A DNA stretch of 64,000 nucleotides, from contig CBDVDR010000009.1 in NCBI GenBank assembly GCA_965372795.1, positions 58,599 through 122,598 on the forward strand. The letters run 5' to 3'. The position numbers and the translations under genes were made by a program. The DNA comes from an uncultured bacterium (GTDB lineage Bacteria; Zixibacteria; MSB-5A5; GN15; FEB-12). The stretch's first letter is position 1; each line of letters starts with the position of its first letter. Shown here piece after piece: positions 58,834-64,000 of the stretch. The notes under the pieces are model-generated. The model searched no databases. It worked only from the letters and a program-made list of their open reading frames with translations, and was not told where the DNA came from.

Positions 58834-59331
58834 CTATTCCACTTCAAGTGACAGTTTAATTACTTTGTTCTCCGGCTTAAGCTGTCGACACTTAACTCCT
58901 GCCATATCAAATATTTTTCTGGCCGCTATAAATATATCACTTCCGTTATACTTATCAGAAAGAAAAACAACTTCCTTAATTCCTACCTGTACAATCAGCT
59001 TGGCGCACTCATTACAGGGGAACAATGAGACATACATTGAGGCTCCCTCAAGCTGCGGTTTATTGGAGGAATTCGTGATAGCGTTCATTTCGGCATGGCA
59101 CACATAGGGATATTTTGTGTCCAGAAAATCCCCTTCCCGATCCCAGGGAAGTTCGTCGTCGTTACATCCGGTTGGAAACCCGTTGTACCCGATACCGATA
59201 ATCCGGTTATTGGAGTTGACGATACAGGCGCCTACTTGGGTTGATGGGTCTTTGGAGCGATGGGCTGAGAGTTGGGCAATTGCCATAAAATACTCTTCCC
59301 AGCTGATAAAATCTGTTCGTTTTTTTTGCAT
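58834..59331 (-). CDS. dCMP deaminase
   Basis: [23 protein letters not shown]. Confidence 0.95.
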
Positions 59332-59436
59332 GATGACTTAAATCTTTTGACCGTTTATTTTATTGATAACCAGTATGTTTTGGCCGTTTTGTTTCATGGC
59401 AAATTATAGAGTATTCAATTTCCCTTTGCAAGCGAA

Positions 59437-59529
59437 TTGTCATCCTCGCCCCTTTTGTCATCCTCGCGCACGCGGGGATCCAGTCTTTCTCCCGTAGGTC
59501 AGTCCGCCAAGGCGGATGTGCTCCTGACA
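59437..59529. repeat. REP-like palindromes (GTCAT-type with partial 18-nt-period duplication, then GTAG-type)
   Basis: TTGTCATCCTCGC twice, GTCATCCTCGCGCACGCGGGGATCCAG, and GTAGGTCAG-TCCGCCaaGGCGGA-..CTGAC. Confidence 0.7.
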
Positions 59530-59570
59530 TTATTTCCTTGTAACTCTTTTTGTTGTTTGGTAGTACACGG

Positions 59571-59777
59571 AAATGGGTTCGTTTTGTTACTTTTGTATAC
59601 TTGCGCATATTTCAAATGTTTCGGTACTTTAAAGGTGCTTTGTGTGATTTTCTGTGTTTTTTTACATCGTGTGATTTATTGATTTTTGTAGTTCGAATTT
59701 TGGACATAGCTCAACGTTCCTCTTTTTATAAAGGGACGCGGAATAGCATTCACCAATGAAATTGTGGGGAAATTGCG
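59571..59777 (-). repeat. Left copy of a long imperfect inverted repeat (partner 63337-63563)
   Basis: Collinear reverse-complement match, with exact blocks of 26 nt (59595-59620/63513-63538), 17 nt (59761-59777/63337-63353) and 14 nt (59571-59584/63550-63563). Confidence 0.9.
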
Positions 59778-59792
59778 TATGATTTCTCTTGA

Positions 59793-59857
59793 GTAGGTCA
59801 GACTACCAAGTGGCCGACCTTGTTTTTGCAGTAGGCAGAATCACTTAGGTCCTGCCT
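59793..59857. repeat. Two GTAG-headed REP-like hairpins (may also terminate the cassette transcript)
   Basis: GTAGGTCaG...CcGACCT and GTAGGCAG...CTGCCT. Confidence 0.6.
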
Positions 59858-59863
59858 TTTATT

Positions 59864-60367
59864 CTATATCCAATTTATGATATTGTTATAATTAGATCCT
59901 AACGTAGCTCCTGAAATTAACGTAATTAACCAAATAATAAACGAAACAAGTCTTCTTGTATTCTTGCCCTCTTCTGATTTAGCTGTGAGCTCTTTTCTAA
60001 GGGATACTTCCATTTCTTCCTTAAATGCTGAATAGTGTTCTTTATTAATATTTGATATTACTTCATATTTTTGTGCTAACCTTTTTTTATCCTCGATCTC
60101 ATTCAACAAAGTGTCTAATTGAGTTGTTTGTGTAGCTAACTCTGTTTGCATCGATGATATGATATTATTAGCTCTGTTAAGGTGGAATCGTGCTTCTTCA
60201 ACCTTTTCTTTTTCATCTTTAGTTTCGGGGAAAAAATCAGCAAAATGTTTTCCAATAGTATGAGTTGTAATCACTTGAATCTGATCTTCAGTAAATAATG
60301 ATCCATTTATTAAACGTATCAATTCCATTGTAATTTTATTATATAGTTGAATAACATTGAATATCAT
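59864..60367 (-). CDS. Coiled-coil protein with C-terminal transmembrane helix
   Basis: Heptad-like E/K/Q-rich middle; RRLVSFIIWLITLISGATLG at the C-terminus; AAGGTG RBS. Confidence 0.7.
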   Translation of the reverse strand: MIFNVIQLYNKITMELIRLINGSLFTEDQIQVITTHTIGKHFADFFPETKDEKEKVEEARFHLNRANNIISSMQTELATQTTQLDTLLNEIEDKKRLAQKYEVISNINKEHYSAFKEEMEVSLRKELTAKSEEGKNTRRLVSFIIWLITLISGATLGSNYNNIINWI

Positions 60368-60491
60368 TTACATCACCTTAAATAAAGTTAAATTATATTT
60401 TGATATAATTTTTATATCCCTGAACATTTCAAAAGCGCACAAAATAATAATTTAATTACTATGCCAGTTATCCCACACCTTGTAGTTAGTG

Positions 60492-61799
60492 TTAATAATT
60501 CATATAAAAATCACAAACGTTATAGTAAACTTTTCTTTCTGCATCACTTGGAATATATCGTTCTTGCGATAACCAAGGAATAGATGGAAATTCCTCTATC
60601 CCATCTATTCCTAATCTTGTTATGCAACTGATATCTATTGATGGATTAAATAGCTTCTTGATATCTTCACTTTCTCTTAGGTCATATATACTTCTATGAT
60701 TTAATATCATAGCAGACAGAAACGTCGCAAAAATTGTATTACTATTGACAATTCTTTTCTTTTTAAAAGAATCAAAATAAGTTACTTTTGAGTCCTGGTT
60801 GATGTAAAGATACTTTGAAGCTTCAAAACAAATTGTTACTCGCCAATCTGGTTCATGCCCATCATGACATTGGTGTTTATATACCAATTCTGCCTTTCTG
60901 AGAATAATTTTAATAAGCCGTATTGTCATAGTGGGAGACTTTATTAACTCATCCAAAAAGGAAATAATTTGTCCTTTATTGTTTTCTCCCGACCAAGCCA
61001 CATACCCATTCGGCCAATTTTTCTGACCTTCAAAAAGTGTGTCTTCAAACACACTCTCGACAAACTTCTCTAGTCCATTGTGTTTTGGATTAAAAAACTC
61101 GAAATAATCAATACATTTTAAATAAGAGTCTATGTTTTTTTCATAGTTCTCTTCACCCATTGGTACAACAACAATGACTTTTTTACTTAGACATGAATCT
61201 CTTAAAAACTGCTTCAAGGTTTCCAAAAAGAATACACCAGAATCACCTGATCTGTCAATATCTTCAACAACTATAAAAATATTTGAATCCTGCTTGTTAA
61301 TAATATCAGTTAATATATTTTGTATATCAAACACTCTCGTTGCAGGTGAGATTTTAAATATTTCAATGAACTTATTTAATACTTTGAGAGATGGAAACTT
61401 ATTTGTAAATCTCAACAGTAAATCCGCTGAGAGATCAACCTTCTCAGACTTTGCATCTTTCCCATCTATTTTTTTTTGAACTTCATTCCTATTTCCTACT
61501 TGATCCGCAAAATCTAAAACAAATCCTTCCCATAAATCTTTTCTTTCAGGGTATTTCCAAGCATCAAAATTAATCCATATCTCTTTATTTTCTTTCTTAT
61601 TTTGCTTTTCTTTTTGGATTTGGTAAAGCATAGTGCTCTTACCAGTGCCGAATTTTCCGATCAAACCTATTATGGCTGTTCTATCAATAGTTTCTAACCT
61701 GTTTGAGAATGCAGTAATTGATTCAGAAAAATCTAATAGATCTTCAACTCTGCAATCTTCTTGTATTAGATCATAATTTTTTATAAATCCATCTGTCAT
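60492..61799 (-). CDS. KAP-family P-loop NTPase
   Basis: Walker A GKFGTGKST, FDAWKY KAP signature, Walker B IFIVVEDIDR, YLKCID. Confidence 0.85.
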   Translation of the reverse strand: MTDGFIKNYDLIQEDCRVEDLLDFSESITAFSNRLETIDRTAIIGLIGKFGTGKSTMLYQIQKEKQNKKENKEIWINFDAWKYPERKDLWEGFVLDFADQVGNRNEVQKKIDGKDAKSEKVDLSADLLLRFTNKFPSLKVLNKFIEIFKISPATRVFDIQNILTDIINKQDSNIFIVVEDIDRSGDSGVFFLETLKQFLRDSCLSKKVIVVVPMGEENYEKNIDSYLKCIDYFEFFNPKHNGLEKFVESVFEDTLFEGQKNWPNGYVAWSGENNKGQIISFLDELIKSPTMTIRLIKIILRKAELVYKHQCHDGHEPDWRVTICFEASKYLYINQDSKVTYFDSFKKKRIVNSNTIFATFLSAMILNHRSIYDLRESEDIKKLFNPSIDISCITRLGIDGIEEFPSIPWLSQERYIPSDAERKVYYNVCDFYMNY

Positions 61800-61801
61800 A
61801 A

Positions 61802-63238
61802 CTATTTTTTACTCTTACTTTCTTTAAATAGAATTGTTGAGAATCCTTTTATCTTTTCAAAAAGTTCATCAAAAGTAACAATATCGACATCTCTACTATT
61901 GCTTCTAAATAGTTCAAATGATTTTTTTTCATCTTTATTGTGTTTAGATAAAGTACCTACTATAACGATACATTTTGAATTATATGATTGAATAGAGTCA
62001 TTACTTTTAGATTGTAAACTATAGAACTCTTTTTGTAAATTGTCTCTTTGGTCAAGAACTTGATTTATTGCTGCATTAAGTTCTTTGTTTATTGCAAACA
62101 CATCATTACCGCGATAGGGGATCTTGCCTGTAAGTAAAGGTGTTTTGTGAGTCTTGATTTCAATTAAAGCAATATTGTCTGTTAGTTGATTCTTGTAAAT
62201 AAAGTCGGATACTTTCCCACCTGTACCATGAATGCCCTTTCCACCTACATAAGCTTCATCTTCATATAATAGAACGGGAAATGAGAACAATTGAGAAAAA
62301 ATCCAACTATACTCCTTAAAAAACTTCTGCCATCTTTTCTCAAGTTTAGGGGTATGATGCATCTGTTTCATCATTTCCTGAAATTTATCGATAACTTCCT
62401 CAATATAGTATTCCTCAATCTTCTCTTTTGTTATCAATACTTGTTTTTTATCAAGTTTTTCACTGACTTGAGATATATTGTTCACTATATCAAAAAGAGA
62501 AGTAATATCATCAGCAGATAGTTCGCTATTGTTCAATTTGCTCTGTTTTATAAATCTGTTTAAGCTACCCTTTGTATATTTTGTGATTGTACTTTTAAAC
62601 TTATTCGGAAACAGCTTTGCGAGAATATTTACTTCTAATTCCTTTTGCTTATTGGTTTGCTCTACAATTAGAGAGTTTAATTGTGGATATATCTCATTAA
62701 GATCGTTTGCATTGAGAACAATAGTTTTATTTCTATATGATGTCTTTCGTGTTCCACTAACAATTACCGAAGGCAACTTTAATTGCTTGTCTAAAGCTTT
62801 AAGAAGACCATTCAATACTTTTGTAAAACCATATCCCTTTCCCCATACCTTATTGAAACCTCGAGGTAACTTTTCAGGCATATTTTCATAAACAATTGAA
62901 ATTATATTTTTATATTTAGGAATTCCAGTTTTCCAGAACGGATAATGGATAACTTTTTTTACGTTTTTAAAGATTTCTTTTGATTTAATATTTATATTAT
63001 TTTGTTTATCTATGTAATGATAGACATCCTTGGTTGTCGCCTGGTTAACCAGTATTTCATTTGGTTCTAAAGGATTTTGAGTAACTTTCTTCTTTGCTAC
63101 TTTCTTCTTGGCTACTTTTTTCTTAGCTACTTTTTTCTTAGCTACTTTTTTCTTAGCTACTTTCTTCTTAGCTACTTTCTTCTTTGCTACTTTCTTAACA
63201 GCTGTTTTTCTTTTGGTCACTTTCTTCTTTACAGCCAT
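61802..63238 (-). CDS. sduA: Shedu (SduA, DUF4263) anti-phage nuclease with histone-H1-like N-terminal repeats
   Basis: EKRWQKFFKEYSWIF, YVGGK, SDF...LIEIKT PD-(D/E)xK core, AAINQVLDQR, FELFR...IVTFDEL; GGAGG RBS favours a start at 63238/63241. Confidence 0.88.
   Translation of the reverse strand: MAVKKKVTKRKTAVKKVAKKKVAKKKVAKKKVAKKKVAKKKVAKKKVAKKKVTQNPLEPNEILVNQATTKDVYHYIDKQNNINIKSKEIFKNVKKVIHYPFWKTGIPKYKNIISIVYENMPEKLPRGFNKVWGKGYGFTKVLNGLLKALDKQLKLPSVIVSGTRKTSYRNKTIVLNANDLNEIYPQLNSLIVEQTNKQKELEVNILAKLFPNKFKSTITKYTKGSLNRFIKQSKLNNSELSADDITSLFDIVNNISQVSEKLDKKQVLITKEKIEEYYIEEVIDKFQEMMKQMHHTPKLEKRWQKFFKEYSWIFSQLFSFPVLLYEDEAYVGGKGIHGTGGKVSDFIYKNQLTDNIALIEIKTHKTPLLTGKIPYRGNDVFAINKELNAAINQVLDQRDNLQKEFYSLQSKSNDSIQSYNSKCIVIVGTLSKHNKDEKKSFELFRSNSRDVDIVTFDELFEKIKGFSTILFKESKSKK
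63084..63196 (-). repeat. 15-nt coding tandem repeat encoding (AKKKV)7
   Basis: GCTAC recurs at 63096, 63111, 63126, 63141, 63156, 63171, 63186; differences between units are synonymous. Confidence 0.95.
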
Positions 63239-63291
63239 CATTCCCTCCATTTTATAATATGTCCAGAATAATTCTTCCCACGATTTTATAA

Positions 63292-63320
63292 AATATACTG
63301 AACATCACCTGATTCGTCAA
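63292..63320 (-). promoter_or_regulatory. Sigma70 promoter for the Shedu-KAP cassette
   Basis: TTGACG-17-TATATT just inside the right inverted repeat. Confidence 0.6.
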
Positions 63321-63336
63321 CGATTTATTCACCCCC

Positions 63337-63563
63337 CGCAATTTCCCCACAATATCAATGGTGAATGAGAAATCGTACCCCTTTATAAAAGGAGGAACGG
63401 TGAGTTATGTCCAAAATCCCAACCACGAAGTATGCGTAAGTATACAAAATTCACAAAATCACACGATGCAAAATAACACTCAAATTCACAGAATGTGCCC
63501 TTACGGTACCGTAACATTTGAAATATGCGCAAGTATACGAATAATGAGCAAACGAACCCATTT
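63337..63563 (+). repeat. Right copy of the long imperfect inverted repeat (partner 59571-59777)
   Basis: See left copy; carries an extra ~19-nt insertion near 63424-63442. Confidence 0.9.
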
Positions 63564-63617
63564 CATAAATCAAATTGAGAATGTTAAAATTACGCCAGAG
63601 AAAAATACACGAAGTGT

Positions 63618-63859
63618 GCAAACGAACCCATTTTCGTTGTACAACACGCCACCCCAACAACTTACACCGAAAAAAAGGCAGGTCTGCGGGGAGACCTGCC
63701 CTACGAAGAAAATTAACCAAGTATGCGTACGTATACAAAGTATGATTGATTATAAAACACACTAAATGAGCAAACGAACCCATTTTGGTTGTACAACACA
63801 CCACCACAATGACTTACACCGAGAAAAAGGCAGGTCTGCGGGGAGACCTGCCCTACGAA
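63618..63859 (+). repeat. Two ~90-bp direct repeats (period 152) with GCAAACGAACCCATTTT, a 27-bp GTAC..ACTTAC site and a GTAG-type REP hairpin
   Basis: Copies start at 63618 and 63770; identical GGCAGGTCTGCGGGGAGACCTGCCCTAC at 63677 and 63829. Confidence 0.9.
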
Positions 63860-63871
63860 AATATAAAACAC

Positions 63872-64000
63872 ACGAAGTGTGAGATTGCTTCGCTTTGCTC
63901 GCAATGACAGGTCGAAGACATAGACACACCATGTGTGCGAAGTATACGAAGTGTGAGATTGCTTCGCTTTGCTCGCAATGACAGGTCGAAGACATAGACA
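63872..64000 (+). repeat. Two exact 55-nt direct repeats (period 74) containing the REP-like GAGATTGCTTCGCTTTGCTCGCAATGAC
   Basis: 63872-63926 equals 63946-64000; the array may continue beyond the window. Confidence 0.9.

Follow-up and report, generated by a model that had tools for sequence, protein, structure and literature searches.

Defence systems lie mostly in variable islands, and the assembly of such islands where neither an integrase nor a transposase is present is an unknown process. Among the closest described systems are restriction-modification (R-M) units that are flanked by inverted repeats and lack a transposase. The clear cases have repeats of 26-65 bp, 8-bp target duplications and genomes with an empty site, and a transposase acting in trans was left open by the authors (Furuta, Abe and Kobayashi 2010, PMC2853133). 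In this study, we examined a cassette of comparable outline in a 64,000-nt stretch of DNA from an uncultured bacterium of the Zixibacteria (the window; contig C9:58599-122598, reaching the contig end; C-numbers denote contigs of the same genome). Like those R-M units (PMC2853133), the cassette, at window positions 59571-63563, holds compact defence cargo between imperfect inverted repeats and has no mobility gene inside. The arms here, however, are ~210 nt long, multi-copy, polar and linked to a conserved gene family (termed gene X), and no target duplication or empty site was found. Each arm is a copy of a repeat unit with a 14-nt core at its outer end. About two dozen small islands in this genome have this one polar boundary element in common, and six of them are closed by a second, inverted copy. 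With a boundary element that is conserved across an order and one gene family that tracks it, what would otherwise be a loosely defined hot spot becomes a system open to testing, with a specified site and a candidate protein.

Other known systems resemble this locus in part. Repetitive extragenic palindromic (REP) sequences, together with bacterial interspersed mosaic elements (BIMEs), REP doublets forming hairpins (REPINs) and REP-associated tyrosine transposases (RAYTs), are dispersed, lineage-specific, orientation-sensitive intergenic repeats, often arrayed and co-distributed with one gene. The units described here share the dispersal, lineage specificity, orientation sensitivity, arrays and single co-distributed gene, but they have no conserved hairpin or GTAG head, and gene X is not of the Y1/HUH type. 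Moreover, Y1_Tnp is near-universal in the phylum (185/201 genomes, against 64/201 for the core) and is not found beside the core, and a separate GTAG-REP family is present in the genome. In the integron platform, intI is followed by attI and then by the cassettes. Here, too, a conserved gene is directed away from a palindromic site, where diverse promoter-proximal cargo starts, and direct core arrays stand between cargo genes in other genera; however, no tyrosine recombinase is found at the loci, no attC-like site follows the cargo, and the cargo has its own promoter. The dif modules of Acinetobacter plasmids have flanking sites that are inverted. They are likewise accessory, toxin-antitoxin or resistance modules without a recombinase of their own; short conserved sites bound them, and a host-encoded site-specific system is presumed to move them (PMC6449649, PMC13141974, PMC7399989). 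The loci here, by contrast, are chromosomal and intergenic, and no 28-bp XerC/XerD-type site was recognised in the units or the genome: a consensus pattern gave no strict match, only loose matches scattered outside the units, which is a weak negative because the dif site of Zixibacteria may differ. Finally, mobile insertion cassettes and composites of miniature inverted-repeat transposable elements (MITEs) or Tn3-derived inverted-repeat miniature elements (TIMEs) are described as passenger genes between parent-derived ends, without a transposase and with mobilisation presumed to occur in trans (PMC3913671, PMC5444012, PMC4133298). As with MITEs and insertion sequences, the short unit is multi-copy and has its ends in common with the gene X module; unlike them, gene X as the putative parent gene matched neither a family nor a fold of transposases, no target duplication was seen, and most islands are one-ended. 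Among the papers listed on Zixibacteria, defence and repeats, judged by titles and abstract openings, we found nothing on the present repeat.

The cassette and its housekeeping flank comprise the following features, in window coordinates.
58834..59331, minus strand: dCMP deaminase gene (Pfam dCMP_cyt_deam_1, 3.3e-28), the housekeeping gene that flanks the left unit on its core side
59529..59570, plus strand: outer tail of the left unit (TTCCTTGTAAC...GTACACGG), with copy-to-copy homology ~45 nt outward of the core
59571..59777, plus strand: left unit, with core 59571-59584 and inner palindromic box 59748-59775 (nhmmer E 3.7e-63; inner-end profile E 1.1e-9)
59864..60367, minus strand: cargo gene 3, an open reading frame (ORF) for a 167-aa protein with a hydrophobic C-terminal stretch
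60492..61799, minus strand: cargo gene 2, KAP-family P-loop NTPase (Pfam KAP_NTPase 1.2e-8, 35 bits, cut-off 20)
61802..63250, minus strand: cargo gene 1, Shedu SduA (PADLOC SduA 2.6e-83, residues 27-479; Pfam SduA_C 3.2e-26)
63292..63320, minus strand: promoter-like site of the cargo operon, TTGACG-17-TATATT, sigma-70-like, 10/12, top of the region scan
63337..63563, minus strand: right unit, with inner box 63339-63366, core 63550-63563 and an additional 19-nt internal duplication (nhmmer E 6.5e-61; inner-end profile E 2.1e-11)

The original prediction, made from the letters of this DNA, held that 59571-59777 is an inverted repeat of 63337-63563, and the comparison bore this out. Pairwise alignment gave 82% column identity, with uninterrupted matches of 26, 17 and 15 nt; its one indel, of 19 nt, reflects a duplication within the right arm. 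Repeat detection found collinear inverted arms at 59592-59690 and 63443-63541 (99 nt, 83%) and a second collinear stretch at 59685-59777 and 63337-63429 (93 nt, 82%). Between the arms lie exactly three ORFs, all on the minus strand and, as had been claimed, AT-richer than their surroundings (GC 0.25-0.34, against 0.40-0.48 for glnA and the deaminase flank). A promoter had also been placed between the arms; the sigma-70-like site at 63320..63292 lies there, in non-repeat DNA between the right arm and sduA. REP-like hairpins are grouped on both sides of the cassette, again as foreseen, and the claimed lack of mobility functions agrees with our results, in that Pfam and PADLOC scans found no transposase or integrase inside the cassette and no target duplication was seen at the locus.

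SduA was assigned to Shedu by its DUF4263/SduA_C nuclease domain (SduA_C 92.8 bits, cut-off 27). Only 2 nt separate the sduA stop from the start of the KAP NTPase gene (61799-61802), a gap that suggests translational coupling; the KAP and transmembrane (TM) genes may thus be part of the Shedu system, and a second system is not required. The KAP gene has weak PADLOC matches to PifA and QatA, and cargo gene 3 has no family match, only sub-threshold Pfam and PADLOC matches. At the start of sduA, nine tandem 15-nt repeats (63045-63239) encode (V)AKKK units, giving a lysine-rich N-terminus (KKKVA x9) that looks like a DNA-binding tail; the region has a sub-threshold match to the histone-H1-like HC2 family.

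The ~207-nt unit belongs to a repeat family, and the arms here are two of its copies rather than sequences unique to the locus. The left arm matches 32 places in the genome; a profile built from seven full copies gave 36 matches at ~27 intergenic loci (nhmmer), and profile and core scans together bring the family to ~31 intergenic loci. The core, the outer 14 nt (AAATGGGTTCGTTT), occurs 39 times exactly and 49 times with <=1 mismatch, and a rescan with a core 10-mer gave 61 matches, compared with 11 for the reversed control. Each unit runs from a ~45-nt outer tail through the core and a variable body to an inner imperfect palindrome; this inner box is ATTCAYCAATGA/ATTGGTGGGGAATTTG (also written ATTCAYCAATGA/ATTGGTGGGGAAT), and homology ends there. 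As a terminal inverted repeat of the unit itself there is at best a ~14-nt imperfect match, read by eye, between the outer tail (TCATTGTGGTGATT) and the inner box. The copies have a mean pairwise identity of 66%. Pair-mates share 82% (Shedu locus), 74% and 57%, low values which argue that they are not recent duplicates; the right arm is closest to a C17 copy (85%), and the two arms are not exclusive sisters. A search with the inner-end profile for inner boxes standing alone at the distal ends of cargo yielded a single convincing case (C3:50566-50601). This box lies just past a 346-aa ORFan that has a full unit on its other side in the same orientation, which places the cargo between direct inner boxes.

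The orientation of the family is non-random and tied to cargo boundaries. When neighbouring loci lie <5 kb apart, all five pairs are arranged '+ then -' with cores outward, and the 10-mer rescan added a sixth outward-core pair on C5, making 6/6. The cargo differs among the six brackets: a STAND NTPase with gene X, two SoFic genes, a SocA toxin-antitoxin pair, the Shedu operon, Dcm-EcoRII-Vsr, and a 370-aa ORFan; the C5 pair surrounds the SoFic genes, and in two of the six the core region stands alone at one end. Random placement of 31 loci produced 0.32 such pairs on average, with none of 20000 trials reaching 5, and shuffling of orientation only gave P=0.001. The original prediction had named as its refutation an abundant repeat, randomly oriented and independent of cargo; the repeat is abundant, but all six pairs face outward and accessory genes lie inside. 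At the deaminase locus of relatives, none of 37 loci has an adjoining core. A 22-kb C17 island between inverted units was rejected, given that it contains housekeeping uvrC, uppS, cdsA and thiolase genes.

The units are also polar with respect to the genes on their two sides. The nearest genes on both sides of each locus were scanned, with ORFs called crudely (longest, >=90 aa) and defence calls accepted from PADLOC at E<=1e-8; 24 islands had an assessable inner side. The core side is housekeeping (dCMP deaminase, frr, queA, gatD, gyrA, secA, mnmA, a tRNA synthetase, cdaA, a histidine/aromatic amino-acid lyase and a PstS-like gene), and the outer genes gave only two generic PADLOC matches, a methyltransferase and a DEAD-box helicase. 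On the inner side, PADLOC defence proteins were found at 10 of the 24 islands: Shedu, GajA/GajB, HamA/HamB, AbiEi/AbiEii, SoFic (two loci), MTase/REase/Vsr, a PD-T4-6 kinase, a KAP QatA-like protein, and PDC-M48B. In another six, the inner genes carry Pfam domains of a defence-like or toxin-antitoxin kind, namely NB-ARC STAND NTPases (two), SocA/Panacea, Roc-COR, DUF4238 and HSDR_N_2; a further six hold ORFans alone, and the remaining two have ordinary-looking genes (TPR; ABC-F with a subtilase). A complete Gabija system (C17:43835-47731; GajA 5.4e-253, GajB 9.3e-164) stands between frr and uppS-cdsA, with the unit adjoining frr.

Comparison with related genomes identified the cassette as an insertion. 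In at least 12 of 38 related genome loci and 10 of 32 metagenome loci, a conserved gene run ending in a 255-aa gene precedes the deaminase gene, whose orthologues are 76-89% identical at Zixibacteria loci; from its sequence, the 255-aa gene appears to encode an SPFH-like protein. The SPFH-deaminase spacers of 20 listed relatives measure 74-603 nt and usually contain one terminator hairpin. In the present genome, the SPFH gene (C19:318-1058, minus strand) is among the genes that open contig C19, and the first 52 nt of this contig (C19:1-52) match the final 52 nt of the window exactly, within a 74-nt tandem repeat; the two contigs, C9 and C19, are therefore adjacent in the genome. The spacer here is thus ~4934 nt, uncertain by the tandem copy number, which against 74-603 nt in relatives marks the cassette as inserted DNA. 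The locus is not invariant, as the original prediction had required, since relatives have the flanking housekeeping genes adjacent; these relatives are at genus level or more distant, and their intergenic DNA does not align. Among the 37 related deaminase loci lacking an adjoining core, one has a core 4989 nt upstream. The cargo is sporadic, with SduA in 2/201 Zixibacteria genomes and no close SduA relatives among the genome contigs searched. In the same-genus genome G001, contigs stop 92 nt short of the deaminase start and 250 nt beyond frr, i.e. at unit junctions, and the closest metagenome contig by its deaminase (89% identity) has another neighbour. Insertion into a pre-existing palindrome was considered and rejected, because the spacers of relatives hold a plain terminator hairpin rather than the 48-nt motif that flanks the insert here.

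Gene X links the core to a conserved protein family. A 179-aa ORF, it takes the place of the unit body at two loci (C1:153667-154203 and C2:295068-295604), with the inner box upstream (nhmmer E 1.1e-5, 9.4e-5) and the outer 24-nt core region retained, the core forming its last codons (KTNPF). Between the two loci, identity is 91% across a stretch of exactly 594 nt that begins at the inner box and ends 7 nt beyond the core, and the cargo beside them is unrelated, a STAND NTPase at one and Hachiman at the other. Gene X has a conserved N-terminal motif, NAxKSTGPKTxEGKxxSSxNAxKHGL, and the gene itself has up to 8 matches per Zixibacteria genome. It gave no Pfam or NCBIfam match, and its 183 homologues are all annotated "hypothetical", none with a Pfam domain. 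The predicted model, a confident one, is an all-helical hairpin or bundle (pLDDT 83), for which the best VIA Z, 8.1, was to generic helical hairpins; in the ESM Atlas, the clusters closest to gene X consist of hypothetical proteins, most frequent in Acidobacteriota, Planctomycetota and Cyanobacteriota. Core-like motifs stand at or after the 3' end of gene X at 6 of 14 more distant loci, with a few further variants seen by eye, and at the coordinates listed for four other genomes an exact core lies next to gene X on the opposite strand. In 14 other genomes the 5' neighbours are unrelated cargo, and the 3' neighbours include guaA and hflX. A conserved partner gene upstream of gene X was sought and discarded, in that 15 inner neighbours elsewhere are unrelated save one orthologous pair.

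The core is conserved across one order, and the distribution of gene X mirrors it. Cores were found in 64/201 Zixibacteria genomes (32/72, 3/3, 10/12 and 15/21 in families f1 to f4, and 3/92 elsewhere); for gene X the corresponding counts were 31/72, 3/3, 10/12, 17/21 and 5/92. Within f1, both occur in 22 genomes, the core only in 10, gene X only in 9 and neither in 31; among genomes with at least 10 cores, 21/23 have gene X. Y1_Tnp, in contrast, is present in 185/201. BLAST of the whole unit in 30 relatives returned one weak match, so the unit body does not carry over to other genera, whereas the core does. The polarity is seen again in two other genera: at 22 core clusters in the genomes G186 and G047, the nearest inner gene has no Pfam family in 14 and the nearest outer gene in 7. 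In G047 units the architecture is retained (the core and, at the inner end, GTGATTT..GAATTTG), whereas the sequence of the body is not. In G186, the cores form head-to-tail arrays (e.g. C1:480236-480480) that repeat every 114-117 nt and in every case flank the cargo on its housekeeping side, and most units have no ORF.

To account for these data, we tentatively prefer, at somewhat less than an even chance, a transposase-less cargo cassette whose ends come from the gene-X-linked repeat family and which was joined to the chromosome by an activity in trans; as part of this reading, the Shedu-KAP-TM operon would be horizontally acquired cargo. The cargo, delimited by two inverted polar units, would have been inserted as one unit between the SPFH and dCMP deaminase genes, the units serving as joining sites. 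The unit would stand to the 594-nt gene X module as a MITE stands to its parent element, with like ends and a different interior, and cargo modules would be joined at unit ends by sequence-specific recombination or transposition supplied in trans. Candidate catalysts are the gene X product and a host recombinase. A further proposal, which we consider improbable, is that gene X is the specificity factor of an undescribed cassette-capture or mobilising system, with the core as a second recognition site and the gene-less units as non-autonomous derivatives that bracket cargo. Gene X would then read away from the palindromic box at which unrelated defence cargo joins, as intI/attI does in an integron.

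Several results weigh against a cassette joined in trans. Of the 24 islands, 18 are one-ended, and a relaxed profile search at eight candidate far ends found a second end on C5 only. The copies are old, as their mean identity indicates. No target-site duplication was seen at the outer flanks of the six pairs, a weak negative given that the true tips are uncertain, and no strain-level empty site was present among the genomes and metagenome contigs compared. The gene X model has no enzyme-like fold match, and Foldseek (pdb) returned nothing at E<=1e-3. In other genera, among the cores listed, four of five neighbouring pairs 0.7-6 kb apart are direct and one is inverted, so a closing inverted copy is not general. 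Genome-wide family searches found no recombinase gene near any unit: the four PF00589 tyrosine recombinase matches (two on C6, one on C12, one on C10) are not at a unit locus, the three Y1_Tnp matches have no core within reach, and IS110 has no match in the genome. The original prediction had looked to a RAYT/HUH or recombinase gene beyond base 64000, which failed; no transposase is found there, the sequence runs straight into the SPFH gene on C19, and the Y1/HUH genes of the genome are unlinked to the repeat. Its proposal of a composite element or exchangeable slot stands as regards orientation, cargo linkage and a variable locus, but a composite is only one of several readings that fit.

The strongest competing explanation, though on balance unlikely, is that the units are residents of the intergenic DNA, forming a second repeat family of REP/BIME-like type that does not travel but marks or creates recombination-permissive slots, in which cargo is swapped by homologous or homology-facilitated recombination via the units or flanking genes. 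The age and divergence of the copies and the preponderance of single-ended islands are what it would predict. It also fits the density of other repeat families in the region, with a locus-specific 48-nt inverted pair further out, and the position of the core beside secA in two genera (contig C33 of this genome and one G186 locus). Between copies, up to 24-28 identical nt surround the core. Such a length is about the minimum for RecA-dependent exchange. However, strict polarity and outward cores in every bracket are not expected from passive accumulation, homology stops sharply at the inner box beside unrelated cargo, and the lack of an adjoining core at all 37 related deaminase loci (with the one upstream core) argues that the slot was not pre-marked in relatives.

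Less probable again is a small-gene or cis-regulatory/insulator module that accompanies foreign operons, made up of a palindrome resembling an operator, either a small outward-reading ORF or gene X, and a 3' signal that is conserved, with the inverted pair insulating both sides; it is compatible with both the cassette joined in trans and the resident repeats. A block with a Shine-Dalgarno (SD) sequence and ATG, present in 24 of 27 copies scanned, and the first codons on the outward strand (MSKI.TTK) are among the best conserved parts of the unit, and the small ORF or gene X is in every case directed outward, away from the palindromic box. At 16 loci the unit is upstream of the cargo operon, which is mostly transcribed away from it, and the architecture of the unit is kept in another genus though its body sequence is not. 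Against such a role, the small-ORF reading varies from 1 to 82 aa between copies, and an ORF is missing from many units, among them nearly all that were seen in G186. RNAalifold on 49 copies gave no consensus structure around the core on either strand, and the unit RNA is no more stably folded than shuffled sequences (z=0.05). Moreover, the core is equally invariant in short non-coding tandem units, which suggests that the constraint on it acts on DNA and not on a peptide, and a regulatory module leaves the foreignness of the cargo unexplained. Chance, i.e. two independent insertions of an abundant repeat at the Shedu locus, is very improbable: the family has dozens of copies and the arms are not exclusive sisters, but 0.32 pairs are expected in random placement against 5 to 6 observed, and every bracket holds accessory cargo.

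The remaining features of the region are as follows.
59437..59484, strand not assigned: outer locus-specific 48-nt inverted-repeat arm, REP-like, with its partner at C19:167-214, past the window end
59494..59527, plus strand: GTAG-headed REP hairpin, from its sequence a member of a different, far larger repeat family
59612..59707, minus strand: predicted small ORF of 31 aa (MSKIRTTK...) on the outward strand of the left unit, preceded by AAGAGGAACG
59793..59862, plus strand: REP-like hairpins downstream of the cargo operon, from the sequence a direct repeat with 59494-59511
63564..63859, minus strand: three more short core-bearing units, cores 63620-63633 and 63772-63785, two with a GC hairpin and T-run
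63872..64000, plus strand: 74-nt tandem repeat at which the assembly breaks, with C19:1-52 identical to its final 52 nt

A terminator-like site lies within the stretch of short units (63702..63675, minus strand). An Rfam scan of 59300-64000 found no known RNA family, the sole match being a sub-threshold one to tmRNA within the KAP gene. The REP motif GTAGGTCAG occurs 372 times in the genome at <=1 mismatch, and the GTAG-headed family to which it belongs (e.g. 59494-59511, 59793-59810) coexists with three Y1_Tnp genes, one of them a pseudogene. The 16-mer GAGGATGACAAAAGGG of the 48-nt outer arm, in comparison, has four genome occurrences in all at <=1 mismatch. The 48-nt outer arms are inverted and 87.5% identical over 48 nt (blastn, E 5e-10), and lying outside the units they enclose the entire 4.9-kb insert, which gives the locus a nested palindromic layout.

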